A stretch of DNA of 64,000 nucleotides. Source: Candidatus Falkowbacteria bacterium (lineage in GTDB: Bacteria > Patescibacteriota > Patescibacteriia > CAIXNZ01). The translations under genes and the position numbers were made by a program. Shown piece by piece: positions 16,184 to 56,886 of the stretch (position 1 is the stretch's first letter; every line of letters starts with the position of its first letter). The stretch spans positions 296,716-360,715 of the forward strand of contig CAVZGV010000004.1 in assembly GCA_963774955.1 (NCBI GenBank), read 5' to 3'. Under the pieces are notes generated by a model, which was not told the DNA's origin, made no database searches, and saw only the letters and a program-made list of their open reading frames with translations.

Positions 16184-16188
16184 CAACA

Positions 16189-16339: not shown

Positions 16340-16369
16340 TTGACAAAAAGTTTTAAATGTGCTATTATA
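16340..16369 (+). promoter_or_regulatory. consensus sigma70 promoter (TTGACA-18-TATTAT), promoter module copy 1
   Basis: ctaactattgacaaaaagt...gctattat; a near-identical copy is at 16791-16819. Confidence 0.55.
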
Positions 16370-16427
16370 TAGATACAAAAATAAGCGTCTGAACTTTTAA
16401 CTGCAACCTTTTCAAAGGAGGATACAT

Positions 16428-16697: not shown

Positions 16698-16790
16698 AAA
16701 AATACCCTCACACCCCGGGAGACTTTTATCCCGGGTTTTTTATTTGTAAGCCATTTTCAGCGTTTATTTGAGGTTATTTCCCCCTAACTA

Positions 16791-16819
16791 TTGACAAAAA
16801 GTGAAATATATGCTATTAT
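16791..16819 (+). promoter_or_regulatory. consensus sigma70 promoter, promoter module copy 2
   Basis: ctaactattgacaaaaagt-N9-tgctattat, identical core to copy 1. Confidence 0.55.
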
Positions 16820-16876
16820 GTAATGATGTGTCTTTTTTAGGATTGATTGTTTTTACCACTATAACCAAGGAGGAAT

Positions 16877-24370: not shown

Positions 24371-24407
24371 TTCATTTATTTTTTCATTTAATATTAAATA
24401 GTTTTAT

Positions 24408-27400
24408 ATGATTTTCAACCAAACCAAGCCATTAGAATTTGACGGCATCAGGCTCAAGCTGGCTTCTCCTGACGTGATTAGAATTTGGTCACACGGCGAA
24501 GTAACTAAGCCGGAGACGATTAATTATCGGACTCAAAAACCTGAAAAAGACGGGTTATTCTGCGAGAAAATTTTCGGACCATCAAAAGATTGGGAATGCT
24601 ATTGCGGTAAATATAAAAAGATCAGGTATAAGGGGATTATTTGCGATAAGTGCGGAGTAGAAGTTACCCATTCCATGGTCAGACGCGAACGCATGGGGCA
24701 TATAGAATTATGTTCGCCAGTTTCGCATATTTGGTTTTTGCGCGGCGTGCCTTCCCGTTTAGGATTAGTCTTGGATATTTCAGTCCAAAGTCTGGAAAAG
24801 GTCATTTATTTTGCGAGTTTCGTAATTACTTCTGTTAATCAGGACCTGAAAAATCAGGCCATGGAACAGCTGAAGGAAGAATACAAAAATAAGAAGAAAC
24901 AAATAGAGGCTAATTTCAAAAACCGGGTTAATCAGATTAAAACCAATAAAGATCTCAAGGAAAAGGAACAGGACAAAAAGATCATTGAATTGAATAAAGA
25001 AAGAGATTTGGAATCAGCTGAATTCGAAAAAGAATATGTTAAAACCGAGACGGACTTAAAGGAGCTCAAAGTAAAAAAAATTATTTCAGAAGATCAATAT
25101 CAGGATTTATCTCTTAAATTCGGCCATCTTTTTGAAGTGGCTATTGGCGCTGAAGCAGTCAGGAAATTGCTGGAAGTGATTGATTTGGAAAAAACTATAA
25201 AAAGTTTAGACGCCGAATTGGAAGAGGCGATCGGCACAAAAAAAGAAAGAGCTGTTAAACGTATTAAATTAATCAAGAATCTGGTTAAAAATAAAATCAG
25301 ACCTGAATGGATGATCTTGAATATGATTCCGGTTATCCCGCCTGATTTAAGACCGATGGTTCCTTTGGATGGCGGTCGTTTTGCCACTTCTGATTTGAAT
25401 GATTTGTATCGCCGGGTTATTAATAGGAACAACCGTTTGAAAAAATTAAAGGAACTCAACGCTCCGGAAGTTATTATCCGCAATGAGAAAAGAATGCTTC
25501 AGGAAGCTGTCGATGCTCTCTTGGATAATAGCGCCAGACATTCAAAGACAACTACGGCTTCAACCGGCCAAAAACGCCAGTTAAAATCAATTGCTGATAT
25601 TTTAAAAGGCAAGCAAGGTCGCTTTAGACAGAATTTACTGGGTAAACGTACTGATTATTCTGGCCGCAGCGTTATTGTTGTCGGTCCAAATTTAAAACTT
25701 GGCCAATGTGGCTTGCCTAAACGTATGGCGCTGGAATTATTCAAACCGTTTGTAATCAGTCAGCTTATTAAACGTGAATTTGTCCATAATATCAGAAGTG
25801 CCAATAGGTTTATTGAAAGCAACCGTCCTGAAATTTGGGATATTCTGGAAGAAATAGTTAAAGACGCCCATGTCTTATTGAATCGCGCGCCGACTTTGCA
25901 TCGCTTGGGCATCCAAGCCTTTAAACCAACTTTGATTGAGGGTAAAGCTATTCAATTACATCCTTTGGTTTGCGCTGCCTTTAATGCTGACTTTGACGGT
26001 GATCAAATGGCAGTTCATGTGCCTTTAACAGACCAAGCAAAAAATGAAGCCAAGGAATTGATGCTTTCTTCCAAGAATTTATTAAAGCCGGCAACCGGCA
26101 ATCCAATCGCTACTCCAAGAATGGATATGGTCTGGGGTTGTTATTATATAACGGAATTAAAAAAGTTAAGGGAAAATCTCAGATCTTTTGGCTCATTTGA
26201 AGAAGCAGTCTTGGCTTATAATTCAAAAATTATTACTGTTTCTGAAGAAATCGAAGCGCGTGATATTTTGCCAGGTAAAAAGAAGCCGGAAAGAATTATT
26301 ACTAATGTCGGACGCATCTTATTCAACCGTTTATTACCTCCAGAACTCGGGTTTTTCAATGAACAAGTTACCAGCAAAAATCTGGGTGATTTAATTAAAT
26401 TTTCCCTGGAAATAGTGGGTAAGGATAGAACTGCAAAATTACTTGATGACATTAAAGACCTTGGCTTTAAGTTTTTAACTTTAAGCGGTTATTCCTGGGG
26501 TATGGAGGATTTGCCGGAATTGCCTGGTAAACAGATACTAGTAGATGCTGGGGATGTGCAGATTGATGAGGTTAATGATCAATTTCAACAAGGTTTACTG
26601 ACCAAAAGTGAGCGTCATTCTAAGATCATTGAAATTTGGACCGCGGTTAAGGATAAAATCGTACAATTAGGTAAGGATTCATTGAGTAAAGAAGGTCCTG
26701 TTTTTTCCATGGTTACTTCCGGTGCTCGCGGATCCTGGACCCAGGTGACTCAGATGGTGGGTATGAAAGGCTTAGTATCCAATCCCGCAGGTGAAATTAT
26801 TGAATTGCCTGTCAAAGCCAGCTTCAAAGAAGGGTTTGATGTTTTGGAATATTTTATTTCTACTCATGGTTCCAGAAAAGGCTTATCAGATACTGCTTTG
26901 AGAACCGCTAATGCCGGTTATTTAACCCGACGTTTAGTTGATGTGTCTCAGGACGTAGTCGTTCGGGAGGAAGATTGCGGTGATAAAAAAGGCATGCTTT
27001 ATACTAAAAAAGACAGCGATGAAATCGGAGTTAATATCATGGAGCGCGTCTGGGGCAGAGTCAGTCTGGAAAAAATCACTGATCCAAAAACAAACGAAGT
27101 AATCGTTGATAAAGATCAATTAATTACTGAGGCAGTGGTGCGTAAATTACTACCTTTAGATTTGGAACAGATTACTGTCCGCTCGGTTCTGACCTGTAAA
27201 ATGACCAAAGGACTATGCACCAAATGTTATGGCTACGATCTCGGTTATAATGAAATGGTTAAATTAGGCGTAGCCGTCGGTATTATCGCGGCTCAAAGTA
27301 TTGGTGAACCAGGCACTCAGCTGACGATGAGAACTTTCCATACCGGTGGTGTGGCTGGTACTGATATCACTCAAGGTTTACCTCGGGTGGAAGAACTTTT

Positions 27401-28295
27401 TGAAGCTCGTCCGCCTAAGCGTAAAGCTATATTGGCCGAAGAAGACGGCCTGGCTTCTATTTCTGATGCGCCCAAGAAAATTGAAGATGCCAAGGGCCGG
27501 GTTATATTTAGCTCCACCCATGGCCAAAAGATATTGAAGATAAAATTTGATGATGTGGAAGATGATTCATATTCCTTTAAAGGTCAAGCTCCGACCTTAA
27601 AAGTTAAAGAAGGGGACAAGGTCGTTAAAGATGAAGTTTTGTTTAAATTAGGTAAAACAGAAATGAAAGTTAAACGAGATGGCGTAGTTAAGATTACTGA
27701 AAAAACCGTAAAAGTAGTCTGTAATGTTGAAAAGGAAAAAGAATATCTCATCCCCTCAGGCTATCGTTTATGGATCAATGACGGAGATTTTGTAAAAAAA
27801 GGCGATCAACTGACAGAAGGCAGTTTGGATTTACATCAATTATATAAACTTAAAGGACGCGATGAAGTCAAGCGTTATGTGGTTAAAGAAATTCAGTATA
27901 TTTATGCTTCCCAAGGCCAGCGTTTAAATGAAAAGCATATTGAAGTTATTATTAAACAGTTGTTTAGCCGTGTCTTAATTAAAGATGCCGGTGATACCAA
28001 TTTATTGCCTGGCGAAATAGTGGAAAAAGCTGAAATGGATGAAGCTAATATAGAGATTGATAAAACCAAGGGCAAACAGGCCACTTCTGAAGAATTATTC
28101 CTGGGCATTACCAAAGTCTCATTGACTACCCGCAGTTTCTTGTCTGCCGCTTCTTTCCAGGAAACATCACGTGTCTTGATCAATGCGGCCTTGACCGGCA
28201 AGATTGATAAACTGGAAGGCTTGAAAGAAAATGTGATTATTGGCCGCTTGATTCCGGCCGGCACCGGCTTTAGGAAGAAAAGTAAAGATGAGTAA
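24408..28295 (+). CDS. rpoC: DNA-directed RNA polymerase subunit beta'
   Basis: 1295 aa with NADFDGDQMAVHVP and zinc-binding cysteines. Confidence 0.95.
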   Translation: MIFNQTKPLEFDGIRLKLASPDVIRIWSHGEVTKPETINYRTQKPEKDGLFCEKIFGPSKDWECYCGKYKKIRYKGIICDKCGVEVTHSMVRRERMGHIELCSPVSHIWFLRGVPSRLGLVLDISVQSLEKVIYFASFVITSVNQDLKNQAMEQLKEEYKNKKKQIEANFKNRVNQIKTNKDLKEKEQDKKIIELNKERDLESAEFEKEYVKTETDLKELKVKKIISEDQYQDLSLKFGHLFEVAIGAEAVRKLLEVIDLEKTIKSLDAELEEAIGTKKERAVKRIKLIKNLVKNKIRPEWMILNMIPVIPPDLRPMVPLDGGRFATSDLNDLYRRVINRNNRLKKLKELNAPEVIIRNEKRMLQEAVDALLDNSARHSKTTTASTGQKRQLKSIADILKGKQGRFRQNLLGKRTDYSGRSVIVVGPNLKLGQCGLPKRMALELFKPFVISQLIKREFVHNIRSANRFIESNRPEIWDILEEIVKDAHVLLNRAPTLHRLGIQAFKPTLIEGKAIQLHPLVCAAFNADFDGDQMAVHVPLTDQAKNEAKELMLSSKNLLKPATGNPIATPRMDMVWGCYYITELKKLRENLRSFGSFEEAVLAYNSKIITVSEEIEARDILPGKKKPERIITNVGRILFNRLLPPELGFFNEQVTSKNLGDLIKFSLEIVGKDRTAKLLDDIKDLGFKFLTLSGYSWGMEDLPELPGKQILVDAGDVQIDEVNDQFQQGLLTKSERHSKIIEIWTAVKDKIVQLGKDSLSKEGPVFSMVTSGARGSWTQVTQMVGMKGLVSNPAGEIIELPVKASFKEGFDVLEYFISTHGSRKGLSDTALRTANAGYLTRRLVDVSQDVVVREEDCGDKKGMLYTKKDSDEIGVNIMERVWGRVSLEKITDPKTNEVIVDKDQLITEAVVRKLLPLDLEQITVRSVLTCKMTKGLCTKCYGYDLGYNEMVKLGVAVGIIAAQSIGEPGTQLTMRTFHTGGVAGTDITQGLPRVEELFEARPPKRKAILAEEDGLASISDAPKKIEDAKGRVIFSSTHGQKILKIKFDDVEDDSYSFKGQAPTLKVKEGDKVVKDEVLFKLGKTEMKVKRDGVVKITEKTVKVVCNVEKEKEYLIPSGYRLWINDGDFVKKGDQLTEGSLDLHQLYKLKGRDEVKRYVVKEIQYIYASQGQRLNEKHIEVIIKQLFSRVLIKDAGDTNLLPGEIVEKAEMDEANIEIDKTKGKQATSEELFLGITKVSLTTRSFLSAASFQETSRVLINAALTGKIDKLEGLKENVIIGRLIPAGTGFRKKSKDE

Positions 28296-31700: not shown

Positions 31701-34700
31701 CGACTGTTACTAATGCGTTAGACCTGGATACTGATTATGAATATGATTATTCTTCAGGCAAGCCGACCCAGGTGACTGATCCTAATGGGCGGGTGTTTCA
31801 GACAGTTTATGATGCCCTGGACAGGGTAAAACAGGAAAAACAGCCGGATTTAACCACGCCGAGTACTTTGGTGGTTAAAACTGAATATACATACACTGAT
31901 AATACCGTACCGAGCAAAGTTCAGCAGACAAATAATCTGGATTCTTCAACGAGTTTTGATATTTATACTTATCTTGACGGTTTTGGACGAAAAATTCAGG
32001 AAAGAAAAGAGGCCGAGGCTTCAAATACATTTAGTGTCAAAGATTTTGCTTACAATGACCTTGGCCTGGTGGACAGGGAATCTTTGCCGTACTTTTCGAC
32101 CGGCACATCCAGAACAACCGCCACCACTGATAATTCGCTTTATACCAGTTACACTTATGATCCTTTGCAAAGAGTCGCCACCTCAACTAATGCAGTTGGC
32201 ACCACCACGAATACTTATGACGACTGGAAACTGACCATTACTGACGCGGAAAGCAATGTTAAGGATTTGTACAAAGATGCTTATGATAATTTAGTCCAGG
32301 TTGATGAACATAATGACTCAAGTACCTATACCACGACTTACGGGTATAATGGTCTGGGAAATTTATTAAATATTACTGATTCTCAGGATAATGTCAGGAA
32401 TTTTACTTATGACGGACTTGGCCGCAGATTAACAGCCGAGGATTTGCATGATCCTGAAGACGAATATTTTGGCGAGTGGACGTATGGTTATGATGATTCA
32501 GGTAATTTAACTTCCAGAACTGACCCCAATTCCCAGACAGTAAACTGGACTTATGATGATTTGAACCGCGTTTTGACTGAGGATTACACGGGTCAAAGCG
32601 GAACCGAAGTGGCTTATGTTTATGACACTGGAACGGACGGAATTGGCAGGCTTTATACGGCCACAACACCTGACGTGGTTACGACTCATACTTACAATCC
32701 GCTGGGCGGAGTGAAAACTGAAAATAAATACATTGATTCAACCAATTATCTGACCGAGTTTGCTTATGACCGCCAGGGAAACCAGACCTTGATTACTTAT
32801 CCGAGCGAAGATGAAGTTAAATACGAATACAACACGGCCGGGCTTTTGGAAAAGATTCAAAATAAACCAGCCGGTGAACAGTCTTTTACAGACCTGGTCA
32901 GCGATTATGATTATTCGCCTTTGGAGCAGGTAACTTATCAGGAAGACGCCAATGGCGTTAAAACCTTTAATACTTATGACGAGCAAAAATTGTACCGCCT
33001 AAAAGAGAAAATCACAGCCAGTCCGGATGAAGGTGATTATGGTGAAGGGATGTTTAATATGGCAATGGCTGTCCCGAGCGCAGGTGTCATTCAGAGCGGT
33101 AGCGAAGAATCCATTGCCCCCGCCACAACCGGAATCCTTTCAGCGCTCGGCGTTACTGCGGATTCGCCGTTGACGAGCGCAGGTGTCATTCAGAGCGATA
33201 GCGTGGAATCCATTGCCCCCGCCACAACCGGAATCCTTTCAGCGCTCGGCGTTACTGCGGATTCTCCCTTAACCCCGCTCATAAACAGTGTAACCATGGC
33301 TACGGAAAGTTTAGGTCTGGTTAAGGATCCTCAAATAGAACCGTTACCGGTTAAGCCTGGGGAAAAAGTCCAGCGGGATTTCCTCGGCCGGCCGGTTGAT
33401 TATTCCAATTATCCCAAAGATACCACGGTTTACATTAAAACAGATCCAAACGCCAAATCTCAGGAATTGCCTAAAGAAGCGATTGAAGCCTATGATAAAG
33501 CGGCTGCCAAGCCTCAACCCGAGCCTGAATTAAAGACTTTATTGCCCCAGGAGGCTGTTGATTATTACAACAGTCAGGCTCAAACATCACCAGGCGACGG
33601 CTCCATGATGCTTTTGGAAAGCGTTAATCCACCTAATCCGTCAACGAATTTACAAACTGAAAATTTATGGAAAAGCGACAATATAATCTACAATTCCGGT
33701 TTTGAAGACGGATTTGCATACTGGCAGTGGCAAAATAAGCAGGGCGATACGCATACGGAAGATTGCACAGTTTCCTACAGCGGTTCCTGTTCGGAAAAAG
33801 TTACCATTGCCACTTCAGGTAATTTTTGGGAAACCCAAGTTTACCAGGTTTTAAGGCTGGATGAGAATATTAATTACAAACTGCGTTTTAAGGCCAAAGC
33901 TTCAACAGCCATCACATTTAGCCTGGAAGCCGTGCAAAACCACACGCCATTCAATGACCTGGGCTTGTGGAAAGGGGATTTAAGCATTGGCACTGACTGG
34001 CAGGAATACGAATATACTTTTACTGCTTTGGCAAGCGATCAGGACGCCAGAGTAACCTTTTATCTGGGCGCCAATGCGGCAGATTACTGGTTTGACGATA
34101 TTGAACTCATACCCGATGCTCTCAATATGCTGAAAAATACCAGTTTTGAAAACAATCTTGATAATTGGGAATTTTATGATTACAACAGCACCAGCGAAAA
34201 TACCCGAGACTGCGCAGAAGCGTCTGACGGCGACTGCAATAACAAGGTGGAAAATATGCAGAGCGGTGAATGGTGGCAGGTTTCCCTTAACCAGCCGATT
34301 TCAGTGGTGGCTGACCAGACCTATATTCTGACGTTTTACGCTCATTCCAATTACGATACTCGAATAGCCAAGGTGGCAATCGCCAAGAATTACAGTCCCT
34401 GGACTGATTTGACCGCCATTGCCGAATTTCACACCAACTGGAACGGCGGTTTTGCCAAATACCAGATTGAGCTGACCCCGAACGCCACTGAAAGCAACGC
34501 CCGCCTGATCTTTTATCTGGGCGATGATCAGGGCTGGATTAAGCTGGACAGTCTGCGCTTATGGCCTCAGCAGGCGACTAAGGTTTCAGATTCAACCCCT
34601 GAATTCTCCGCGATTTATGATGATCCGGATTCCGGGGATTATGCAACAGATTACCAGATACAATTAATCAAATATGATGGGAACTGGTCGAACCCCATCT

Positions 34701-36454
34701 GGGATAGTGGGAAGACATCGTTTAATTCTAACGTTTTAGAAGGTAACAGGACTGAAGACATTATTTATGACGGCGACGCCTTGCCTTTGGACGGCATGAA
34801 ATACAAGTGGCGCATCAAGTTATGGGACGAGTCGGATAATGAGGGTGTCTGGACTAATGGCGAGGACTTTTTCATTATGAATGGCAAGCGGATTCAGGAT
34901 TTAAGTTACACCTACGATGATGTGGGCAATATTACGCAGATTATTGACGAGTCTGAAACCAACACGAAGAAAGCCGCCAACTACGCTTATGATGATTTAT
35001 ATCGCTTAACATTGGCCACAATTACGGATTCCGCGACTGATGAGGATTACACTCAGACGTACACTTATGATTCATTAGGTAATTTTACAGACAGGTCAGA
35101 TGTCGGGGATTATGATTATGACGGCAATACCGGGACAAGTTATGCCAATCCGCATGCGGTTACCAGCGTACAGAATGACGCAGTAGCCATAAACTATGAT
35201 CATAATGGTAATTTAACCAGTGAGATTTTAAGCCAGTATCAATGGACGATCTTTGAGGCGGAGTGGGATTACAATAACCGGATGATAAGTTCAGGAGGCT
35301 GGTCAGCAGAAACCGTGTACAGCTATGATCACAGCGGGCAGAGGATTGTGAAGGACACCGGCGATGAATATAGCGGTATTACTACTATTTATGCGAACAA
35401 GTACTACAACGAGCGGACGAACAAGGAAACGTCGGAATTGACCAAGACATTGAATATTTATGACAATAAAGGGAATTTAGTTGCTACGGGCGAAGAAGTC
35501 GGAGAAACTAGTAATATTTATTACGTAAATGGTGACCATTTGGGAAGTTCCAGCGTTATGACGACTGATACAGGGGACATGGAACAGGTGGTTGACTATT
35601 TTCCGTATGGAAATATGCGGTTTAATGAGCAGAGAGTACAAAATGAAAGCTATGATCAGAAGGAAAAATTTTCCGGAAAAATTTTCGATCAGGATGCAGC
35701 TGGGTTGTCATATTTCGGAACCAGGTACTATTCTGGTGAAGCAGGGAAGTTTATTAGTGAGGATCCTGTGTTTTTAGCAGTTGGTGATAATGAAAATATA
35801 AAAAGGTTAGCAAGAATTGAATTACAGCAGTATTTATCCAATCCGCAGATAATGAATAGTTATTCATATTCCTATAACAATCCTTTGATTTATAAGGATG
35901 GTGATGGTAACTTTGCATTTTTGATCCCCATTGCTGCTTATGCAGTCGCTACTGCACCAGTATGGGTACCAGCAGTAATTACCTGGTCTGCCGCCACTAC
36001 TTTAGCCATTAGCACACCACTTGTCGGGGGACAAATATATTCATATGCTAAAGGAGATAATGCAACTGGGAATCAGATGGGTGATGTCGCGATGGGGGTT
36101 ATGGGGATTGAGGCAGGTGTAGCTGGCGGTATTATGTCCATAGATAAAATGTTGAGTTCATCTTATAATAAGCCGGCAAATAGAACAAAATCTAACAGTA
36201 AATCAGCCCCCCTTTTTTCAAGTCATGCACAAATGCGTATGGAGCAAAGAGGAATTTCGATAGATCAAGTTAAGAATGTAATGGAAAATAATAAACCATT
36301 TAATTATTATCACGAAAATAATTGGAAAACTGGGTATTATGATCAATCTAGTAAAGTATTCGTCGCACAAGCAAATGAAAGTGGGCAGGTCATAACCGTA
36401 ATAAACGATGTAAGTCCGCAATATATTAGTAATTTACAATCACTAAAACCATGA
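28766..36454 (+). CDS. giant TcB/TcC-like RHS-repeat polymorphic toxin (2562 aa): SpvB N-domain, FG-GAP repeats, RHS/YD repeats, 2 CBM4/9-like modules, RHS core, DUF4258-like C-terminal toxin
   Basis: SpvB-like LYKYPIQVPPGRNGLQPDLALSYNSQ...GYGWG. Six DxNGDGxxD FG-GAP repeats. Many YD repeats. NSGFEDG...W CBM-like modules. RHS core YYVNGDHLGSSSVMTTD...DYFPYGN...RYYSGEAGKFISEDP. C-terminal HAQMRMEQRGISIDQVKNV... resembles DUF4258. Confidence 0.85.
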   Translation: MNTLDSSGGEVYGDVSNITDSPKTNKSNLEVDQNSGALLYKYPIQVPPGRNGLQPDLALSYNSQDLKYDSEFGYGWGITIPYIERLLKKGIDKAYTENYFTSSLSGELEDVSLSDGHHGTYGAKVDSGDFLKYEFNTSNYWLVTDKKGTVYKFGYNASARQNDPSDSSHVFKWMLEEVRDTNNNYIKYEYYKDNGQIYPSAIKYTGYNTTDGIFEIDFLRESRSNDYVSYKEGFEATTGYRIYEIQAKVSGTWARKYELDYTASSENDWQELLTSITESGNDGSQTISLPVTTFTYQTNGGYVFYTQDQNVDFPTKAYNAMWNGHASNGTFSTDANGDGLSDIVQYKVGYTNCQYSLSRSFLSNGNGWDESSEWTSFNLAKEQYCHSNGDFSVYLRPAIFIDINGDGLSDFVKSGIRLNNSANQDYVSISWNIPLSLTDANGYGIQDYVHLGDFNGDGLVDYFAKYYINGNWHMDIMPNLGNGWYVDNTWSFPSYLSDGIIYNHGIKFADINGDSLDDILVSQNDDQYGTIRKVYLNTGAKSWAETTDFTISSSLVFFIRHTNPDQNMVMPIEFNDLNKDGLTDVIYDESVYINDGSTFIDTTDITSFYSPYFGQISGRNFMEINGDGMPDYSISSKSGIDESYWVGSQYENSEDLSSISKSVYINQKKPSGLLIGVENSKGGSMEVTYKGSGEYKGSNDNLLNPHLPVIVQTVSQITYNDGLNNSWSENYQYANGEYYFSDYLNRKLAGFGLVTKTDAGGNVTKSYFHQGNTTDSSHGEYSDDVSKIGKVYRAEVYDDSDNLYSKSINKWENYDLGNDRDFVKLTQTISFSYDGNTSHKDKAETYTYDNATGNLTQKVTWGEVTGSDNGTYTDTGTDKFTTDIDYAATTGSAVIGLPSQETTEDQSSNKVKETKYYYDSLTLGNVDKGNLTKQEMWKSGTSYIDVEKTYNSYGIVTQEKDPRDKTTDYTYDSYNLYPATVTNALDLDTDYEYDYSSGKPTQVTDPNGRVFQTVYDALDRVKQEKQPDLTTPSTLVVKTEYTYTDNTVPSKVQQTNNLDSSTSFDIYTYLDGFGRKIQERKEAEASNTFSVKDFAYNDLGLVDRESLPYFSTGTSRTTATTDNSLYTSYTYDPLQRVATSTNAVGTTTNTYDDWKLTITDAESNVKDLYKDAYDNLVQVDEHNDSSTYTTTYGYNGLGNLLNITDSQDNVRNFTYDGLGRRLTAEDLHDPEDEYFGEWTYGYDDSGNLTSRTDPNSQTVNWTYDDLNRVLTEDYTGQSGTEVAYVYDTGTDGIGRLYTATTPDVVTTHTYNPLGGVKTENKYIDSTNYLTEFAYDRQGNQTLITYPSEDEVKYEYNTAGLLEKIQNKPAGEQSFTDLVSDYDYSPLEQVTYQEDANGVKTFNTYDEQKLYRLKEKITASPDEGDYGEGMFNMAMAVPSAGVIQSGSEESIAPATTGILSALGVTADSPLTSAGVIQSDSVESIAPATTGILSALGVTADSPLTPLINSVTMATESLGLVKDPQIEPLPVKPGEKVQRDFLGRPVDYSNYPKDTTVYIKTDPNAKSQELPKEAIEAYDKAAAKPQPEPELKTLLPQEAVDYYNSQAQTSPGDGSMMLLESVNPPNPSTNLQTENLWKSDNIIYNSGFEDGFAYWQWQNKQGDTHTEDCTVSYSGSCSEKVTIATSGNFWETQVYQVLRLDENINYKLRFKAKASTAITFSLEAVQNHTPFNDLGLWKGDLSIGTDWQEYEYTFTALASDQDARVTFYLGANAADYWFDDIELIPDALNMLKNTSFENNLDNWEFYDYNSTSENTRDCAEASDGDCNNKVENMQSGEWWQVSLNQPISVVADQTYILTFYAHSNYDTRIAKVAIAKNYSPWTDLTAIAEFHTNWNGGFAKYQIELTPNATESNARLIFYLGDDQGWIKLDSLRLWPQQATKVSDSTPEFSAIYDDPDSGDYATDYQIQLIKYDGNWSNPIWDSGKTSFNSNVLEGNRTEDIIYDGDALPLDGMKYKWRIKLWDESDNEGVWTNGEDFFIMNGKRIQDLSYTYDDVGNITQIIDESETNTKKAANYAYDDLYRLTLATITDSATDEDYTQTYTYDSLGNFTDRSDVGDYDYDGNTGTSYANPHAVTSVQNDAVAINYDHNGNLTSEILSQYQWTIFEAEWDYNNRMISSGGWSAETVYSYDHSGQRIVKDTGDEYSGITTIYANKYYNERTNKETSELTKTLNIYDNKGNLVATGEEVGETSNIYYVNGDHLGSSSVMTTDTGDMEQVVDYFPYGNMRFNEQRVQNESYDQKEKFSGKIFDQDAAGLSYFGTRYYSGEAGKFISEDPVFLAVGDNENIKRLARIELQQYLSNPQIMNSYSYSYNNPLIYKDGDGNFAFLIPIAAYAVATAPVWVPAVITWSAATTLAISTPLVGGQIYSYAKGDNATGNQMGDVAMGVMGIEAGVAGGIMSIDKMLSSSYNKPANRTKSNSKSAPLFSSHAQMRMEQRGISIDQVKNVMENNKPFNYYHENNWKTGYYDQSSKVFVAQANESGQVITVINDVSPQYISNLQSLKP

Positions 36455-49145: not shown

Positions 49146-49544
49146 ATGCATGATTATCAAAGCTTATCTCATTCAAAATGGGACTGCAAATATCATTTGG
49201 TTTTTATTCCCCAGGGTCGGCGAAAAATACTTTTCGGCAAAATAAGAAAGTACTTGGGTAATATTTTCCACGAACTGGCAAAGTATAAAAGTTGCACAAT
49301 TTTAGAAGGACATTTTATGTTGGATCATGTTCATATGTGCATTCAGATACCGCCCAAATTTTCCGTGGCTTCAATCGTGGGCTATCTCAAGGGTAAAAGC
49401 GCCATCATGATCGCCAGGCAGTTTGGCGGCAAAGAAAGAAATTTTAACGGCGAACATTTTTGGGCGCGCGGTTATGCTGTTTCAACCGTGGGATTTGAAG
49501 TTAATCGGATTAGGCAATATATTAGGGAGCAGGATTTGCATTAA
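49146..49544 (+). CDS. tnpA: IS200/IS605-family TnpA (Y1 transposase)
   Basis: YHLVFIPQGRRKIL, HVHMCIQIPPK (HuH) and GYAVSTVG (catalytic Y); 132 aa. Confidence 0.8.
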   Translation: MHDYQSLSHSKWDCKYHLVFIPQGRRKILFGKIRKYLGNIFHELAKYKSCTILEGHFMLDHVHMCIQIPPKFSVASIVGYLKGKSAIMIARQFGGKERNFNGEHFWARGYAVSTVGFEVNRIRQYIREQDLH

Positions 49545-49628
49545 CTAATTATAAATGATACTCATCAGGCATATAAAAGAAAAAGCGTTTAGATATAAAG
49601 GTGAAAAATTACTTTTTAATATAGATAT

Positions 49629-49666
49629 AAAAAACACCTCTCGGAAACGGGGGGCGTTTTTTTTTA
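49629..49666 (+). terminator. rho-independent terminator (copy 2 of the duplicated rpoC-terminator sequence)
   Basis: aaaaaacacctctcggaaacggggggcgttttttttt; 34/35 identical to 28326-28361. Confidence 0.65.
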
Positions 49667-49898
49667 AGTCTAAAGTATAAAGTCTAAGATCTAAAGTAGG
49701 TATAGTTGAATTAGTTATTTCTAAAATTAGCCTTTAGCCTTGTTTGGTTTATTTTGGTCAAATCAGGCTGACAAATACAGGGATACATTCTTGGTATTTA
49801 TCTAATATTAGCTAAAATGTAATCTGGGGGTATTGACAAGTCTCTTTAGATATGATATAGTGGCAAATCACGCTGAAAAAAGCTATTAGGCGTCCTCC

Positions 49899-49928
49899 TT
49901 GACAAATTGTCAAAAGTGTGCTATACTA
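49899..49928 (+). promoter_or_regulatory. consensus sigma70 promoter (TTGACA-18-TATACT) with TTGACAATTGTCAA palindrome; a second one at 49833-49861 (TTGACA-17-TATAGT)
   Basis: Direct sequence reading; both point into the GC-rich island. Confidence 0.5.
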
Positions 49929-50247
49929 ATAAATCATGAAATTTGAAAAATAAACACTTTAGTGACCAGCAATATGGGGGTAGTAGTGCATTAGGTCAGT
50001 AGAGTTTTCCGGCTCAGCTAGAAAACTTCTACGCCTGGTGTTTAACTGATAAGGCTCTGTCCTATATCAGTCGTCTCGCTTCGCGGGACAACACCTCCAT
50101 ATTCTTGGTCATTAAAATAGTTCGAGCTTCTAACAAAGGGCACAGAGTTCCATTTAAATTTAAAATGTACTTTTTAAACAGCGGGACTTCTTAAGCCCTT
50201 TGTCAGGATCTTGAACGCTTTGTCTAACTGCAAGAAAGGAGAAAAGA

Positions 50248-50409
50248 ATGAAACCGGAAATAAACAAGACGAATAAGAAACCCATGGCCTGGATCATGCG
50301 CGTTCGTGACGAAGTCGTGGCGCAGGTGCCCCTGGGAGTGGCTCGCCACTACCAGAAGATCGGTACGGCGATGATCATCGCCTTTTGCGTCAACGGCAAG
50401 ATCCACTAA
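50248..50409 (+). CDS. small GC-rich ORF (53 aa)
   Basis: SD AAAGGAGAAAAG. MKPEINKTNKKPMAWIMRVRDEVVAQVPLGVARHYQKIGTAMIIAFCVNGKIH. Confidence 0.3.
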   Translation: MKPEINKTNKKPMAWIMRVRDEVVAQVPLGVARHYQKIGTAMIIAFCVNGKIH

Positions 50410-50588
50410 GCCGAGATCCACAGCACGAGGGACTGTCAAAAGTCCCTACTTCACCCCAAGACGGGATAGTCTCGCGTAGATTATTTTGTCTTGAGGCGAG
50501 GTCTTAAGTGATCTTTCAAAATTGTTGGTGGAGAAATCCACGCCTATCAGGGAGCAATTCCTGATATACAAAAAAGGAGGAGACGCCC

Positions 50589-51413
50589 ATGACCGAACCC
50601 AATACCGCGACCGATACGACCGCGACCGAACCCGTGATCGAACCCACCGCCGGCGAGCAGGTTTTCACCTGCGCCTGTTGCGGGCACGAAGCCACGGCCG
50701 AAGACGGCGTCGTGACCAGCATGGTCAACGGTCGGTCCAAGATTACCGACGCGACCATGTGGGCCGCGGCCGGCCAAGTCGGATCCGAAACCACGCTCGA
50801 GGTCTTCTGCAAGAAATGCGTGACCGAAGGCGAGGAAGACGGACAGGTGTTCTTCCCGTTGAAGAACGCCCTGGCCTACGCCGACCGCGTCAAACGGCAC
50901 TTTCCCAAGCGCGAGCGACTGCTCGAGTCGGCGAGAGAGCCGGAGATGCGGGAGTCCAGGCCCGAGATGGTCTGCAAAAACTGCGGCAAGCGCCACGGCC
51001 AGATCGACAACTACCGCGGCGACGTGACCATCATCCGCAAGGCTCTGCGAATCGACTTCCAAAAGAAGCCCTTCATCGCCGAGTTCCTCTGCGGAGAGTG
51101 TCTGGCCAAGCTCGGTCTGCTGCCCAAGAAGAACGCCGATGGCAGCTTCACGCAGCCGCAGGGCCTCTTCCCCCCGTGGAAGACGCTGACGATGGCCAAG
51201 GCCGCCGAAGCTGAGCGTCTCGAGCGTATCGCTCGAAACGATGAGGCCAGGCAGCGGAAAGCCGCACAGCGCCAGCGGGAAGACGAGATCCGTCAGCAGG
51301 CGCTGGCTCCCAAGCCCAGCCCCCAGACCAGGGTCTTCTATCGACCCGCGGGCAAGCCCGGCACCGGCAGCATGAGCCATCACGCCAACCGTAAGGCCGG
51401 CAACGGCAATTAA
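50589..51413 (+). CDS. GC-rich (about 63%) Cys-rich hypothetical protein with two CxxC...CxxC zinc-ribbon-like modules and a charged coiled-coil tail
   Basis: SD AAAGGAGGAG 8 nt upstream. Modules FTCACCGHE...FCKKCV and VCKNCGKRHG...LCGECL. Confidence 0.5.
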   Translation: MTEPNTATDTTATEPVIEPTAGEQVFTCACCGHEATAEDGVVTSMVNGRSKITDATMWAAAGQVGSETTLEVFCKKCVTEGEEDGQVFFPLKNALAYADRVKRHFPKRERLLESAREPEMRESRPEMVCKNCGKRHGQIDNYRGDVTIIRKALRIDFQKKPFIAEFLCGECLAKLGLLPKKNADGSFTQPQGLFPPWKTLTMAKAAEAERLERIARNDEARQRKAAQRQREDEIRQQALAPKPSPQTRVFYRPAGKPGTGSMSHHANRKAGNGN

Positions 51414-51414
51414 C

Positions 51415-51672
51415 AAATCTTAGCTTTCGCTAAGTTGGGACAAATGGTTGTTTTGACAACCCCCCGGTCCTGTTAAACGATGGGTTTGGAAAACGTTCCT
51501 AATATCCACAGGATAACTGAGGATAGCGAGGAACAATTGGAGAGGATCCAATCTGCCAAAGCAATGATGGTCAAAGACCATATCATTCCTTAAGCAGACA
51601 TCCCCTCGGGTAGAGACCAAACGTCCTGCCCAACCCTTTGAGCCCATAAAGCAATTTGTGGTTTCAAACAGG
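51415..51672 (+). repeat. roughly 250 bp structured repeat element, copy 1 (starts right after the stop codon)
   Basis: Aligns with 51850-52094 (aaatcttag..ctaag hairpin, ggYtgttttgacaRcc hairpin, caattggagaggatccaatc, ccRtaaagYaatttgYggttt). Confidence 0.55.
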
Positions 51673-51707
51673 TTAATAAAAAACAATAATCCCCAGCCAA
51701 GGAGAAA

Positions 51708-51848
51708 ATGATGCCCAAGTTTCTGCAGGTCATGTTGGCGAATATTCCTTTCCTCGAAGGCAATCAGCCCGACGGTCGCATCCGGCACTATATCTTCCCG
51801 GACGGCCATGTCCTCGAGATCAACCTGGACGCGCTCCCGGCTCTCTGA
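51708..51848 (+). CDS. small GC-rich ORF (46 aa)
   Basis: SD CAAGGAGAAAATG. MMPKFLQVMLANIPFLEGNQPDGRIRHYIFPDGHVLEINLDALPAL. Confidence 0.3.
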   Translation: MMPKFLQVMLANIPFLEGNQPDGRIRHYIFPDGHVLEINLDALPAL

Positions 51849-51849
51849 A

Positions 51850-52094
51850 AAAATCTTAGGCACACTGCTAAGTTTGGGCAAATGGCTGTTTTGACAGCCA
51901 ACCCGGCCCAGTAAAACGAGGGGTATCAACGCGCTCCATTATTTCCGCCTAAGAATTAGGAAATGATCAGGAGCAAATTGGAGAGGATCCAATCCTGTTG
52001 CGGCAAAGCGCTAAAACAGGAAAATATCCTGGGGCGAAACCTTGTTTCGCCCGACTTTCTGAGACCGTAAAGTAATTTGCGGTTTGAGAAAGGG
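51850..52094 (+). repeat. roughly 250 bp structured repeat element, copy 2
   Basis: See copy 1. Compensatory changes in two hairpins (ggttgt/acaacc versus ggctgt/acagcc). Confidence 0.55.
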
Positions 52095-53364
52095 AAAGGT
52101 CAAAAGTTGCATACAACTTTGACACCTTATCTTAGAACGGAAAGCTTGCTAAAGTAATTAAATGCTGATTCAGCAGCCAAACAAGTTTGCGTTCTTAGAT
52201 AAGGAAGTATTTTGAAAATATTTTAAAAGGAGGAAACGTGAACCGGAAGGCTTTTTTCCGCGCCAAAAGCAGGGGACCGCCCTGAAATTAGTCCGAGGAG
52301 ACAGTATAAAACTCCCGGTCATCGCCGAAAAGGAGCCAAAATGCGCTGGAAACTCAAGTTGACCGCGGGGACCTGAGACCCCGAGTACACTCAGGTACTG
52401 TTTAAGAGCAATCTTAGGCAGTAAGGTAATGTAGTCGCGTCAGCACAGATTGGCGGGAATCGCCCACCCTGGGCAAATCCGGATTTGGACGCGGCGTTTT
52501 ACCTCGCCGGATCACCTCAAGCTCCACAGGAGGGAAAACATGACCTTCCACAGCGGTTTCACCTAGGTACACATTAACAGACAGAACCTGACTGAACACC
52601 GACATGATCTTTTTTTCGTCCGTAATACTGTTGTCTGCCGGCAAAGGTTGTCGGAGCATTAGGCGGCAGTCCCTGCCAGGTTTGACCCCCGGTCTCGGGC
52701 CTCTTCGCCCAGCAGTCAAACCGGCTCATCGTCATCATCCCCAGGAGGGTGCCCATGAGACGACTTCACGGACGGGGTTCCTGGATCCCCTGAATTCAAA
52801 TACCAGGATCAGTCTCTGCGCTCCCAAAAAGGAGCAAGAACCAGACCTCCTAAGGGTCACTGTTCCGTTCGACTTTTCATACCCGACAAAAATTTGCAGC
52901 ACTTACTCTTAAAAAGGGTTACGGCCGCGACATAAATCCATGTGGTATACCACTAGTGATCTTGTACGCGATTGCCAATGCCCAAAAAGTAATAATCAGA
53001 GAAGTATGCAAAAGCTTTTGCGGGTTCCGTTGCTTGAACACGCCGGCCTTGGCACCGATATTTCGGTAGCTACTACCGGCACGGACTCGCGCGAGTATGG
53101 TGGCTATCCGGCCCCCTCCACGCTGCGATTGCCCATCGTAGCGTTCCTCTCATCGCCGGAAGAATGGCCACGGCGGGGACCGGGGCGAGGATCCCTCGCT
53201 CCGGCCCCGCACCCCAATCGCAGGCGAAAAAAATCGGACCAAAATCGGACAAGATCGGACAATGACAAGGAGAAGGACAAATGAAACGAAGTTACCGTCG
53301 CCCCAGTTATTGCTGACCCCGACACCGGCTTCGGCCCCGGGTTGCCTCTGTACCCTAAACAGAG

Positions 53365-53397
53365 GGCGCCAAGCTCACAGCTTGGCGTATTTTTTTT
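53365..53397 (+). terminator. rho-independent terminator closing the GC-rich island
   Basis: gcgccaagct caca agcttggcg followed by tattttttttt. Confidence 0.65.
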
Positions 53398-53630
53398 GGT
53401 GAAAAAGTGTTAGGGTAAGGATGCTAGTTAAGTGAATAGTGAAAAGTGTGGATGGTTAATTCTATACACTTTAAACACTCAATACCTTACTATCTACTAG
53501 ATTCATTGACGATTCACCAGGAATAAAAAAACAGCCTAATAATCAGACCGAGTGAAACGAGGGAAATAGATTCTTCGCTTCGCTCTGAATGACTACTAGG
53601 CTGTTTTATATGTGGGTAGTAGTTTATCAA

Positions 53631-53942
53631 TTAAGCTTCAGGAGTAACAGCTGCTGGTTCAGATTTACCTTTGAGAGCATCTTTTAACGCCTTGCCTGAT
53701 TTGAATTTAGGGATAATTACTTCAGGAATATCAATCTTTTCACTGGGTTTTTGAGGATTAACACCTTTGCGTGCATGTCTGGTTTTGGCTGAAAAGGTAC
53801 CAAATCCCGTCAAGACGACTTCTTCGCCTTTTTGTAATGATTCAGTAATGGAATTCAGCATGGTTTCCAAAACTTCTTCAATTTGTTTTTTTGTTAATTT
53901 TGTTTTTGAGGCCACGACCTCAATTAAAGCGGCTTTGTTCAT
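53631..53942 (-). CDS. hup: DNA-binding protein HU
   Basis: MNKAALIEVVASKTKLTKKQ...GFGTFSAKTRHARKGVNPQ; 103 aa. Confidence 0.9.
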   Translation of the reverse strand: MNKAALIEVVASKTKLTKKQIEEVLETMLNSITESLQKGEEVVLTGFGTFSAKTRHARKGVNPQKPSEKIDIPEVIIPKFKSGKALKDALKGKSEPAAVTPEA

Positions 53943-54062
53943 ATAATAGATTTTAGAGCTTAGATTTTTCCGCCAGAGGCGGATCCGCCTTTGGCGGAAG
54001 AGTATAGTTAATTATTAAAATTTAGCCAATGTTACCTTAAATACATTATATACCATGTCAAA

Positions 54063-54866
54063 TTAGATAGCAACATCTATCCACACCCTCTCAATTTTAA
54101 CAGCTTTTTGGGTTTTGGGGTTAATTTCCAAATAAACTCCGTTGATTTGACAGATTCCGCTTTCCGGAATCTCTCCCGGGTCATTAACTTGGCTTAAAAA
54201 GTTCTTTATAATGATTCTTTTATCCAGACCAATGACAGAATCTTTGGCGCCGGTCATACCAACGTCGGAAATGTAGGCAGTGCCTTGTTCTAGAATTTGT
54301 TCATCGGCTGTTTGGACGTGCGTATGGCTGCCGATAAAGGCGGAAATGCGACCGTCGAGATAAAAACCCAACGCCCTTTTTTCACTGGTAGCTTCGGCAT
54401 GGAAATCAACAATAATGGCAGCTAAATTTTCATGTTTATGTTTTTGTAAAATTTCATCAACAGCGCGGAAAGGATCATCAAAATCTTCTCGGAAAAAGAC
54501 GCGGCCGACTAAATTTATAATTAAAACAGATTTTAAACCTACTGAAATTACTTTATCACCGCTGCCTGGTGTTCCTTTGGGATAATTAGCCGGTCTAACT
54601 AAGGGAAAGTCTGCTTTATTCAAGAGGATATAGGCATCTTTTTTGTCCCAGACATGATTGCCGGAAGTAAAAAAATCAATGCCCGCGGACATCATTTCCT
54701 TGGTGGTTGTTTCGGTTAAACCTTTGCCGTGAGACAGATTTTCACCATTGGCAATGACTAAATCAGGCTCATATTTTTTTTTGAGCTTGGGCAGACCGGC
54801 AATCACTGCCTGACGCCCGATTTTGCCGAAGATATCGCCGAGGAATAATATTTTTAGGTTAGACAT
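54063..54866 (-). CDS. ymdB: YmdB-like metallophosphoesterase (2',3'-cNMP phosphodiesterase family, TIGR00282)
   Basis: MSNLKILFLGDIFGKIGR...ANGENLSHGKG; conserved synteny with rny. Confidence 0.8.
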   Translation of the reverse strand: MSNLKILFLGDIFGKIGRQAVIAGLPKLKKKYEPDLVIANGENLSHGKGLTETTTKEMMSAGIDFFTSGNHVWDKKDAYILLNKADFPLVRPANYPKGTPGSGDKVISVGLKSVLIINLVGRVFFREDFDDPFRAVDEILQKHKHENLAAIIVDFHAEATSEKRALGFYLDGRISAFIGSHTHVQTADEQILEQGTAYISDVGMTGAKDSVIGLDKRIIIKNFLSQVNDPGEIPESGICQINGVYLEINPKTQKAVKIERVWIDVAI

Positions 54867-54880
54867 TGTCGGATAGATTA

Positions 54881-55255
54881 TTAATTGTCAGGGAAACGCT
54901 TCTTTATAGTGTCCATCATTTGGGTTATTATCTGCTCATTGGAGCTAGTAATTTTTGGTTCATTTTCGACCCTATCAAAATCAGGCAATACGCCATCAGT
55001 GTCTTCAATAATTTGACCGTCTTTCCTAACGATTAGAGTTTTTCTTGCATACTTGCGATCGCGCAAAAACAAGCCAAGAGAAACGGAACTTTTTTCCGGC
55101 TCAAAAATTATTAGATCCAGCTCATTACCATCAATTGTAATCGGCATGGCGTTTTCCGCTCCAGATAAACCTTCTGGAAATCTTGTTGCCAGCCAATGGT
55201 AATAACCCTCAAATTTGTTAGGTTGTTGATTAAGCTCAAGGCTTTTTTCTGGCAT
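54881..55255 (-). CDS. hypothetical protein (124 aa) inserted between rny and ymdB
   Basis: ORF with a 14 nt gap to ymdB; no domain recognised. Confidence 0.4.
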   Translation of the reverse strand: MPEKSLELNQQPNKFEGYYHWLATRFPEGLSGAENAMPITIDGNELDLIIFEPEKSSVSLGLFLRDRKYARKTLIVRKDGQIIEDTDGVLPDFDRVENEPKITSSNEQIITQMMDTIKKRFPDN

Positions 55256-55362
55256 ATTTTTTGTATTACGTTATTCGGTAACGTTTTGCGTTTCGTTATA
55301 CGTCACGTTATACGTCAAATGATAAACGTAGCGATTGTCGATACCGTAATACGAGACACGAA

Positions 55363-56886
55363 TTAGCGAGCGTACTCAGTCACTCTCATTTCACGAATGA
55401 CATTAACTTTTATTTCACCGGGATATTTCAAATCTTCCTCGATTTTACGAGCAATGCTTTGGGCCAGTTTGGCAGCTTCCAGATCATTAATCTGATCAGG
55501 CATAACAAAGACGCGGATTTCGCGGCCGGCCTGAATTGCATATGATTTGGAAACTCCAGGGAAGGTGTTAGCCACATTTTCCAGTTCTTCCAATCTTTGT
55601 AAATATCTTTCATAGGTATCTTTGCGGGCTCCTGGTCTGGCGCCGGAAATGGCATCAGCCACTTTAACAATAATGCCTTCCAGGGTTTTGGGATTATCTT
55701 CATGATGGGCAATACAAATGTAGGCAATTTCTTCGGGCACATTAAATTTCCTCATAATGTCATGGCCGATTTCCGGATGACCGCCTTTGACTTCATGGTC
55801 AACGGCTTTACCAATATCATGAAAAAGTCCGCCTTTTTTACAGATAGTTACATCAGCATGGAGTTCCTCAGCCAATAAGCCTGATAAATGAGCGACTTCT
55901 AAGGAATGTAATAAGACATTGTGGCCGTAGCTGGTTCTAAATTTTAAACGTCCCAGAATTTGGACCAGTTTAGGATCAATGCCGGTAATACCCATTTCAA
56001 AAACAGAATCTTCGCCGGCTTTTTTAATTTCCACGGCTAATTCTTTTTTCGCATTTTCAATCGCTTCTTCTATTTTGGTCGGATGAATACGGCCGTCTAA
56101 AATTAAAGCCTGTAAAGCGCGTTTGGCAACTTGGCGGCGAATTGGTGAAAAGCCGGAAATAGTAATAGCCATAGGCGTATCGTCAACTACGATTTCTACG
56201 CCGGTTAATTGTTCAATGGCGCGGATATTTCTGCCTTCACGTCCGATAATTCTGCCTTTCATTTCATCGCTAGGCAGATCAACAGTAGAGGTGGTGATTT
56301 CCTGAGCATGGGAAATAGAACAGCGTTGAATAGCTAAAGCCAGAATATCTCGGGCTTTTTTGTCCAGTTCATCCTGTCCTTCGGCCTGGACTTTTTTAAA
56401 TCTGGCCAAAATATCTTCTTTAATCATTTTTTCAGTATTATCCAAGAGCACTTTAGCGGCTTCGTCCTTGGTCATTTTGGCGATTTTTTCAAGTTTTTCC
56501 AGCTGTTCTTCTCTGACTTTATTTATTTTTTCTTTGACTTCTTCAACCTCCTTGGCGCGATCAAGCAGTCGTTGCTGCTTATTTTCCAAATCTAAAAGCT
56601 TTTGGTCAAAAACGCTTTCGCGTTTTTCCAGTCTTTGTTGAAGATAACTTAATTCCTTGCGCCTTTGCTGTTCTTCACGTTTTGCATCGTCAATAATCGC
56701 CAAGGCTCTATCCTTGGCCTGTAAAAGCAATTCTTTTTGTTTGTTTTTAGCTTCGGTAATCAGGTTTTCAGCTTTGGCTTCTGCGCCTTCTATTTCTCTT
56801 TTACCGATAAATTTCCTGATAAAATATCCGGCAGCAAAACCAAGAACAATGATCACTGCCGAGACAATAAAAATAAGGGGATCCAT
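55363..56886 (-). CDS. rny: ribonuclease Y
   Basis: N-terminal TM, coiled coil, KH domain (GRIIGREGRNIRAIEQLTG), HD domain (HSLEVAHL...HDIGK). Confidence 0.9.
   Translation of the reverse strand: MDPLIFIVSAVIIVLGFAAGYFIRKFIGKREIEGAEAKAENLITEAKNKQKELLLQAKDRALAIIDDAKREEQQRRKELSYLQQRLEKRESVFDQKLLDLENKQQRLLDRAKEVEEVKEKINKVREEQLEKLEKIAKMTKDEAAKVLLDNTEKMIKEDILARFKKVQAEGQDELDKKARDILALAIQRCSISHAQEITTSTVDLPSDEMKGRIIGREGRNIRAIEQLTGVEIVVDDTPMAITISGFSPIRRQVAKRALQALILDGRIHPTKIEEAIENAKKELAVEIKKAGEDSVFEMGITGIDPKLVQILGRLKFRTSYGHNVLLHSLEVAHLSGLLAEELHADVTICKKGGLFHDIGKAVDHEVKGGHPEIGHDIMRKFNVPEEIAYICIAHHEDNPKTLEGIIVKVADAISGARPGARKDTYERYLQRLEELENVANTFPGVSKSYAIQAGREIRVFVMPDQINDLEAAKLAQSIARKIEEDLKYPGEIKVNVIREMRVTEYAR

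Follow-up and report, generated by a model that had tools for sequence, protein, structure and literature searches.

Two paralogous copies of a previously undescribed structured RNA domain in a zinc-ribbon gene island of Parcubacteria

Bacterial RNAs that are both large and intricately folded, and whose function is unknown, are rare; several have proved to be ribozymes or to belong to new RNA-protein machines. The described classes OLE RNA (with OapA/B/C), ROOL, GOLLD and raiA are taken here as the frame of comparison for two tandem repeats in a 64,000-nucleotide stretch of a Candidatus Falkowbacteria genome (GenBank assembly GCA_963774955.1, contig CAVZGV010000004.1, positions 296,716 to 360,715), hereafter the window. 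A sequence-only reading of this stretch had left it undecided whether the repeats were candidates for a structured non-coding RNA or for a recombination site. The two repeats, designated E1 (51406–51684) and E2 (51840–52105), represent two paralogues of an RNA domain not described before, which comprises about 270 nucleotides (nt) and ten helices and is read from the plus strand, and it is highly probable that the element (E) is a structured RNA rather than a DNA recombination site. Like the four described classes, E is a long RNA of many helices that covary strongly, and it has GNRA loops, a restricted phylogenetic range, a GC-rich sequence in an AT-rich genome and a function unknown at discovery; it also lies beside genes for candidate partner proteins of unknown fold. 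Unlike them, it has no Rfam match, is shorter (~270 nt), occurs as two old tandem paralogues, is embedded between open reading frames (ORFs) of an mRNA, and has a 3' module in common with plain ORF ends. E thus constitutes a new RNA family, but one whose general kind, the large structured bacterial RNA with candidate partner proteins, is familiar. Coordinates follow window numbering throughout, and L-numbers are labels of related loci or contigs.

A covariance model search of the window returned exactly two copies, E1 and E2, both on the plus strand and each scoring 247 bits. Their identity is 65–77%, with a mean column identity of 77% over an end-to-end alignment in which 108 aligned positions differ, so that the full-length alignment claimed earlier is borne out; the limits first proposed were right to within about 10 nt of the covariance model boundaries. 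The common start hairpin cttag-N-ctaag was located at 51419–51434 in E1 and 51855–51872 in E2. The 19-mer AATTGGAGAGGATCCAATC, put forward as a strictly conserved hairpin, is the same in both copies and is found in the window only at 51535 and 51976, and the motif CCRTAAAGYAATTTGYGGTTT, put forward as a conserved end, only at 51644 and 52065. By chance, 0.02 matches of the 19-mer would be expected in 64 kb, and about 0.02–0.03 for the two motifs, against two of each observed. The compensatory substitutions noticed in one hairpin (ggttg/caacc versus ggctg/cagcc) are also real. Other details required amendment: the short ORF said to precede each element exists before E2 (46 amino acids, aa), whereas E1 follows an ORF of 274 aa, and the start immediately after a stop codon needs qualification for E2, where the stop of the 46-aa ORF sits inside the conserved 5' end. 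The reported lack of an obvious GTTRRRY core also needs qualification, as GTTAAAC occurs in E1 at 51471–51477; it is internal, has no counterpart in E2 and carries no attC meaning.

Folding with RNAalifold and manual reading concur on ten helices. In E1, the start hairpin P1 is followed by P2 (51436–51472), P3 (51445–51461), P4 (51497–51532), P5 (51537–51551, loop GAGGA), P6 (51552–51597), P7 (51569–51579), P8 (51608–51631) and the terminal hairpin P9 (51634–51671, loop GCAA). The corresponding helices of E2 are P2 (51874–51911), P3 (51883–51900), P4 (51934–51972), P5 (51978–51992), P6 (51994–52020), P8 (52031–52052) and P9 (52055–52092, loop GUAA), with P7 absent. Across seven copies, 95.1% of cells are paired, compared with 35–50% when the partners are slid, and 23 pairs are altered on both sides, compared with 2–6 in the slid controls; none of 500 shuffles attained the observed values for pairing and two-sided change. 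In an alignment of 18 matches made with the covariance model, and leaning towards that model, 44 pairs are altered on both sides. Most copies keep the GAGGA loop of P5, the stem of which covaries (UUGGA/UCCAA, UUAGA/UUUAA, UUGGC/GCCAA), and the terminal loop is GCAA, GUAA or GAAA, of the GNRA type, in most copies. Single-copy folding gives minimum free energies about six standard deviations better than those of dinucleotide shuffles (z = -6.15 for E1 and -5.93 for E2), and the minimum-energy folds of both copies recover the comparative helices.

The fold also has a strand. G.U cells number 42 and A.C cells nine, an excess which indicates that the fold belongs to the plus strand, the sense strand of the ORFs. 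Furthermore, mismatches between orthologous copies are spread evenly across the three codon phases, and indels are as a rule not multiples of three (0–2 per comparison are), which together argue for an RNA rather than a coding sequence; a coding reading of E was rejected on these counts. When the whole window was scanned with Rfam 15 (4227 covariance models) at gathering thresholds, only two tRNAs were recovered; a permissive scan of 49500–54100 gave nothing credible over E, and a scan of eleven related loci produced no family match. With ten helices covarying over 7–18 homologous copies of other genomes, strand-specific pairing, a GNRA terminal loop and no codon periodicity, the structured-RNA half of the initial proposal is strongly supported.

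The last third of the element constitutes a two-hairpin module, in which a GC-rich hairpin of free sequence is followed, after 3–6 nt, by a hairpin of 16–17 base pairs (bp). The top of the second hairpin is conserved in sequence, (A/C)CC(R)UAAA-GNAA-UUUG(Y)GGUUU, and its lower stem covaries; over 14 sequences the terminal hairpin is 91.5% paired, with one position being A-U in seven and G-C in six. The 5' domain (P1–P8) is the part specific to E. The module also stands alone, directly 3' of the stops of a zinc-ribbon gene and of a gene for a 324–334-aa orphan protein (L030, L036/L084, L040/L058, L086), as well as 3' of unrelated small ORFs (L082, L019/L044). The REP and BIME hairpins of enterobacterial operons shield the mRNA that precedes them from 3' exonucleases; a REP measures about 35 nt, and its copies lie dispersed in their hundreds, in association with RAYT transposases. 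The module resembles them in consisting of imperfect hairpins right after stop codons inside operons. It differs in keeping to a single locus (two copies in the 64 kb), in having a conserved GNRA-capped top, and in being fused, within E, to a large 5' domain.

Two of the contigs with a stand-alone module hold further features. On the minus strand of L082 (1–1100), every ORF has a repeated intergenic unit, with a TTGACA box, in front of it, and the 148-aa ORF has the two-hairpin module behind it, which suggests an arrangement of promoter-ORF-hairpin units outside a zinc-ribbon island. On the minus strand of L019 (681–736), and likewise in L044, a hammerhead-like sequence of type III matches Hammerhead_3 at 40.3 bits (E = 7.8e-7), short of the 48.5 bits set as gathering score; in L019 it lies about 260 nt upstream of the stand-alone terminal hairpin, in an AT-rich contig.

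Homologues were traced both through the protein encoded next to E1, a double zinc-ribbon protein, and through the element itself. Homologues of the zinc-ribbon gene were found on contigs L003, L004, L084/85, L086, L087, L088-90, L091 and L092; L030 and L036 were found by scanning metagenomes for the 3' motif. That scan, made with the motif in degenerate form, returned 78 loci, mostly chance matches in gut contigs, from which an nhmmer profile kept L030, L036, L040/L058, L082 and L019/L044; its sole viral hit, L083, matched the pattern only. The exact 19-mer gave two hits in GTDB genomes, both in unrelated coding sequence (Methanobacterium, Pyrinomonadaceae) and attributable to chance, and none in viral contigs. 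Two full copies of E are present in each of L003, L004 and L087. More distant full-length relatives were recognised by the model in L030 (74 and 33 bits; labelled F and E3), L084 (29 bits) and L092 (16.5 bits), and a diverged 3' half was identified by eye in L088. The homologues sought with the covariance model and in metagenomes thus exist, and their structure is conserved.

Wherever flanking sequence is available (L003, L030, L036, L084, L087, L088, L091, L092), the order is rpoB-rpoC, the island carrying E, and convergent hup-ymdB-rny, and several of these loci belong to metagenome-assembled genomes of Candidatus Parcubacteria. In one Parcubacteria clade the island has a constant chromosomal position, with rpoC on one side and hup on the other; the window departs from this arrangement solely by 21 kb inserted between rpoC and the island. 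Identity of the zinc-ribbon protein follows that of YmdB (Spearman 0.70) and falls off faster, from 70% where YmdB is 94% identical to 38% where YmdB is 90% identical, which indicates that the island is vertically inherited and that the protein is fast-evolving. Searches of phage, plasmid and viral collections, including blastn against phages and plasmids, gave no match to the island.

The two copies of E are themselves old. Copies of the E1 type (W_E1, L3_E1 and L87_E1, W being the window) and of the E2 type (W_E2, L3_E2, L87_E2 and both L004 copies) cluster apart across genomes whose zinc-ribbon proteins share just 38–70% identity. The duplication is thus older than the split of genomes with about 40% identical zinc-ribbon proteins, and both paralogues have been kept. 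The RNA blocks of the island are better conserved than its proteins; E1 of the window and of L087, for example, share 80% nt identity where the neighbouring protein shares about 40%. Several orders of genes and elements were encountered, with Zn denoting the zinc-ribbon gene and sORF2 the 46-aa small ORF: Zn-E1-sORF2-E2, Zn-E1-E2, Zn-sORF2-E2-E2 and 328aa-Zn-F-E3. This order varies among genomes, and no recombinase was found that accounts for the variation.

The 274-aa zinc-ribbon protein of the window (50589–51413) is marked by four CxxC pairs and the motif CxxCGKxHGQ; its C-terminal helix is long, and its tail is basic. Word-indexed protein searches, even with profiles, recovered only three or four relatives, and scanning 1.84 billion proteins in full with HMMER was needed to arrive at the 16 representatives of the family. 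The AlphaFold2 model (pLDDT 85.5, pTM 0.70) has no structural neighbours in PDB or BFVD and shows no significant nuclease fold. Searches of Pfam, PHROGs, PADLOC, NCBIfam and PDB sequences returned nothing significant for any island protein; a weak match to the anti-sigma factor Fin (E = 0.6) was not taken as evidence. The zinc-ribbon protein and the unrelated 324–334-aa orphan protein have a common C-terminal basic tail, KTGT[HND]G[KR], encoded just before the two-hairpin module (window 51380–51413; L030 3152–3180 and, on the minus strand, 2236–2262; L036 2420–2447; L040 122–150, minus strand). Third codon positions of the tail differ, which implies that it is selected at the protein level.

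Within the window, the repeats lie in a stretch of 54% GC, at about 50.2–53.4 kb, in a 38% GC genome. Consensus promoter and terminator scans, from which the limits of the transcription unit were taken, delimit an island of about 3.6 kb, of which only about 1.1 kb is clearly coding. It opens with two tandem sigma-70 promoters (TTGACA-17-TATAGT, 49833–49861; TTGACA-17-TATACT, 49899–49927; 11/12 each), which would mark the start of the island transcription unit, and a tandem pair recurs in L084 at about 967–1005 and 1054–1090. A predicted intrinsic terminator with a 10-bp stem and T8 (53366–53397), strong by its sequence and lying in a block (53329–53403) 83% identical to L087 12903–12980, would mark its end. 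Between these limits the sole terminator-like site on the plus strand is a weak consensus match inside the first small ORF (50367–50382).

All features of the island are on the plus strand. A conserved non-coding 5' leader (49935–50235) falls in a block (49752–50215) that shares 82.5% nt identity with L087 and 85% with L004 and is far better conserved than the adjacent protein gene. It is followed by sORF1 (50248–50409), which encodes 53 aa behind a strong Shine-Dalgarno sequence and has homologues in L003 (9681–9809) and L086 (187–324). The leader of the zinc-ribbon gene contains a long hairpin (50443–50497) of about 23 bp with many G.U pairs, several of them conserved, for which a consensus fold with covariation was obtained; it shares 97% nt identity with L087 8589–8646, is found in all islands, is present twice in L087 and in L086, and is probably another functional RNA element. 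Between E1 and E2 lies sORF2 (51708–51848), with homologues in L004, L087 and L092. Its comparison with these homologues counts 18 differences at third codon positions against four at second positions, together with an in-frame indel of five codons, a pattern of substitution that marks it as a real protein-coding gene.

Downstream of E2, a non-coding block (52125–52226), read from the sequence as a 15-bp outer stem around smaller hairpins, is 86–90% identical to L086 2969–3069 and L087 11528–11606. The further non-coding stretch 52227–52806 holds several units of a Shine-Dalgarno sequence plus a mini-ORF, and conserved blocks at 52540–52569 and 52773–52806; its ORFs gave no family hit. The block at 52540–52569 is 100% identical to L004 and spans the mini-ORF MTFHSGFT with a Shine-Dalgarno sequence before it. 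Overall, the non-coding blocks 49752–50215, 52125–52226, 52540–52569 and 52773–52806 retain 82–100% nt identity, against 40–60% for the island proteins of the same relatives. The GC content at third codon positions (GC3) of the island genes (50248–51848) is 0.76–0.83, compared with 0.28–0.39 for hup, ymdB, rny and rpoC (53631–56886; 24408–28295); in L003, L030, L084, L087, L088, L091 and L092 it is 0.54–0.89 in the island and 0.32–0.46 in the flanks. The high GC3 of the island persists although the island is vertically inherited.

Altogether, these features are best accommodated if E combines a cis-encoded RNA scaffold with the 3'-end module of an RNA-protein system, a reading to which we give about an even chance (roughly 0.5). 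In the mechanism we infer, the whole island would be transcribed into one long RNA, in which the two-hairpin module would be a site of recognition and processing and would protect 3' ends, so delimiting and stabilising segments of the RNA, by analogy with REP-type intercistronic hairpins. The 5' domain would serve as a scaffold for island-encoded proteins, the prime candidate partner being the double zinc-ribbon protein encoded alongside, which evolves fast and has a basic tail, and the locus would yield an RNA-protein particle. A possible closing helix, P0, would pair the 5' strand CUCUCUGA with UUGGAGAG and compete with the GAGGA-loop hairpin P5; in E2 the possible closing strand lies at 51841–51848. 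As the upstream stop lies in or beside the CUCUCUGA strand, a terminating ribosome may choose between the two folds. The stop codon of sORF2 does fall within this strand of E2, and the strand is kept in L003 although sORF2 is missing there.

Several points weigh against this combined scaffold and 3'-end reading. The single transcription unit is a prediction from consensus scans. In L003, L004 and L030, moreover, a consensus promoter (TTGACA, 17 nt, TATGCT or TAAGAT) starts 7–9 nt past the terminal hairpin of an E copy (L003 about 11123–11160; L004 2416–2455; L030 1295–1255, minus strand), with only a weak match at the position just past E in the window; some copies may thus be transcribed separately, or the hairpin may function at the level of DNA. 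The terminal hairpin is also found outside such islands (L019, L044, L082), so that its partner may be a general host factor and not an island protein. Finally, P0 fits six of seven copies with one-sided changes only and is missing from E1 of the window; because no change on both sides was seen, it is retained as a possibility.

The alternative that survives best, unlikely as it is, regards the elements as cis-regulatory leaders that sense a ligand, a protein, the ribosome or temperature, with E1 controlling sORF2 and E2 the downstream mini-ORFs. Elements do precede an sORF2 homologue in the window, L087 and L092, their size and complexity are like those of large riboswitches or T-boxes, and two mutually exclusive pairings involve the Shine-Dalgarno-like GGAGAGGA. 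The downstream gene is inconstant, however, as L003 has E1 and E2 without sORF2 and L004 has sORF2 before both copies. In addition, the interval from E to the next start contains neither a terminator nor a helix that sequesters a Shine-Dalgarno sequence, and the same 3' module follows ORFs that lack the 5' domain.

A bolder proposal, which we hold with little confidence, is a self-contained RNA-protein machine unique to the Parcubacteria clade and built from two specialised E paralogues and the orphan-fold zinc-ribbon protein; its activity might then be that of a new ribozyme, an RNA-guided effector, or an exported or packaged RNA-protein particle. The signs cited for such a machine are the high GC3 of the island, the slower evolution of the RNA relative to the proteins, and the common KTGT[HND]G[KR] tail.

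It is improbable, though overlapping with the scaffold and 3'-end reading and not exclusive of it, that the elements are independent small RNAs, cut from the operon RNA or made from their own promoters and acting in trans. The promoter-like TTGACA-17-TATGCT/TAAGAT boxes that immediately precede some copies in L003, L004 and L030, the stable hairpins at both element ends and the long retention of two diverged paralogues are in line with this view; the absence of a terminator after either window copy and of any identified target complementarity speaks against it. The type III toxin-antitoxin system was also considered. ToxI repeats are 34–45 nt long, nearly identical, and located upstream of the toxin gene. 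The locus shares with them a tandem structured RNA beside a small protein gene, in one operon and possibly processed into units, but its units are of 270 nt, only 65% identical and downstream of the protein gene, and the protein matches no toxin or defence family (no PADLOC hit); this identity was rejected.

More doubtful still is a new RNA-guided or catalytic machine in which E would be the guide or scaffold RNA, or a ribozyme, of an HNH-like zinc-ribbon protein, comparable with the omega-RNA of TnpB and IscB. As in IS200/IS605 elements with their TnpB omega/reRNA, a complex structured RNA lies directly 3' of a zinc-finger protein gene; the zinc-ribbon homologue of L030 shows weak HNH-like matches (PHROG E = 9.5e-5; Pfam HNH_5 E = 1e-3, below its cutoff), and the protein evolves fast, as in conflict systems. 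In contrast, the 274-aa protein has neither a RuvC nor an OrfB domain by Pfam, no significant nuclease fold emerged, and no variable guide-like segment, transposon ends, PADLOC defence-family hit or ribozyme family match was identified. An omega-RNA identity was rejected for want of a RuvC/OrfB domain and transposon ends.

Very little favours a role at the DNA level, either as attC-like single-strand recombination sites or as a miniature inverted-repeat or palindrome-associated transposable element (MITE or PATE) moved by the nearby IS200-family Y1 transposase (49146–49544). attC sites are single imperfect palindromes of 57–141 nt with R''/L'' and L'/R' cores at their limits and GTTRRRY at the junction. 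The locus recalls attC cassettes in having an imperfect palindrome after each ORF, strand-specific pairing, the G.T asymmetry of which would equally fit one folded DNA strand, and an ORF/element order that varies between genomes. It differs in lacking IntI, attI, Pc and R/L core sites at the borders, in its 265–280-nt fold of ten helices, some of them long-range and with GNRA loops, and in its fixed chromosomal position and vertical inheritance. No integrase exists at the island locus in the window and nine syntenic loci; among the ORFs of 39.6–56.9 kb the IS200 Y1 transposase is the only recombinase, and none was found between rpoC and rny in L003, L084, L087, L088, L091 and L092. The recombination-site, or cassette-array, half of the initial proposal accordingly finds no support, in view of this search, the fixed locus, the multi-helix fold and the old paralogues with orthologues, and attC was rejected as an identity. 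As for PATEs, subterminal hairpins at both ends and a Y1 transposase gene 1.9 kb upstream in the window are points of likeness, yet the transposase is in no related locus, E is unlike IS ends (the longest match to the IS200 region is 12 nt), the 64 kb contain just two copies, none of them dispersed, the element keeps to one locus in all relatives, and the island is unmatched in phage, plasmid and viral collections. A template/variable repeat pair of a diversity-generating retroelement was likewise rejected: the 108 mismatches have A in copy 1 in 35 cases and A in copy 2 in 28, so that there is no adenine bias, and no reverse transcriptase was found at the locus. An artefact, whether assembly duplication or chance resemblance, can be dismissed in view of the 108 differing positions, the shared motifs far beyond chance and the separate orthologues in independent assemblies from NCBI, ENA, JGI and Logan, the old duplication with orthologues excluding both an assembly duplication and a recent repeat.

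The wider window places the island between rpoB and rpoC (20993–28295) on one side and hup (HU), ymdB and rny, then infB, on the opposite strand downstream; HicA/B-like genes and the IS200-family transposase lie upstream of it. The approximately 21 kb between rpoC and the island (28766–49760), which is in none of the related loci, contains a 2562-aa ORF, a CBM protein, an SLT transglycosylase, an RHS-repeat protein, Imm44 and Imm11 immunity proteins, a HicA/B-like pair, and the IS200 Y1 transposase with its own terminator; judged by this content, it looks like a polymorphic-toxin and mobile insertion. Elsewhere, GC is 0.45–0.50 at 13000–18000 and 33000–35000, against a background of 0.36–0.40.

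Should E turn out to do no more than stabilise mRNA through its 3' module, the 5' domain being decorative, it would still provide a new RNA family for annotation. As it stands, the element offers a testable candidate, with a covariance model, about ten loci and a confidently modelled candidate partner without known fold relatives, in a locus whose codon composition is sharply unlike the rest of a reduced episymbiont genome. It may thereby give access to RNA-based functions in bacteria of the Candidate Phyla Radiation, where RNA biology is little known.

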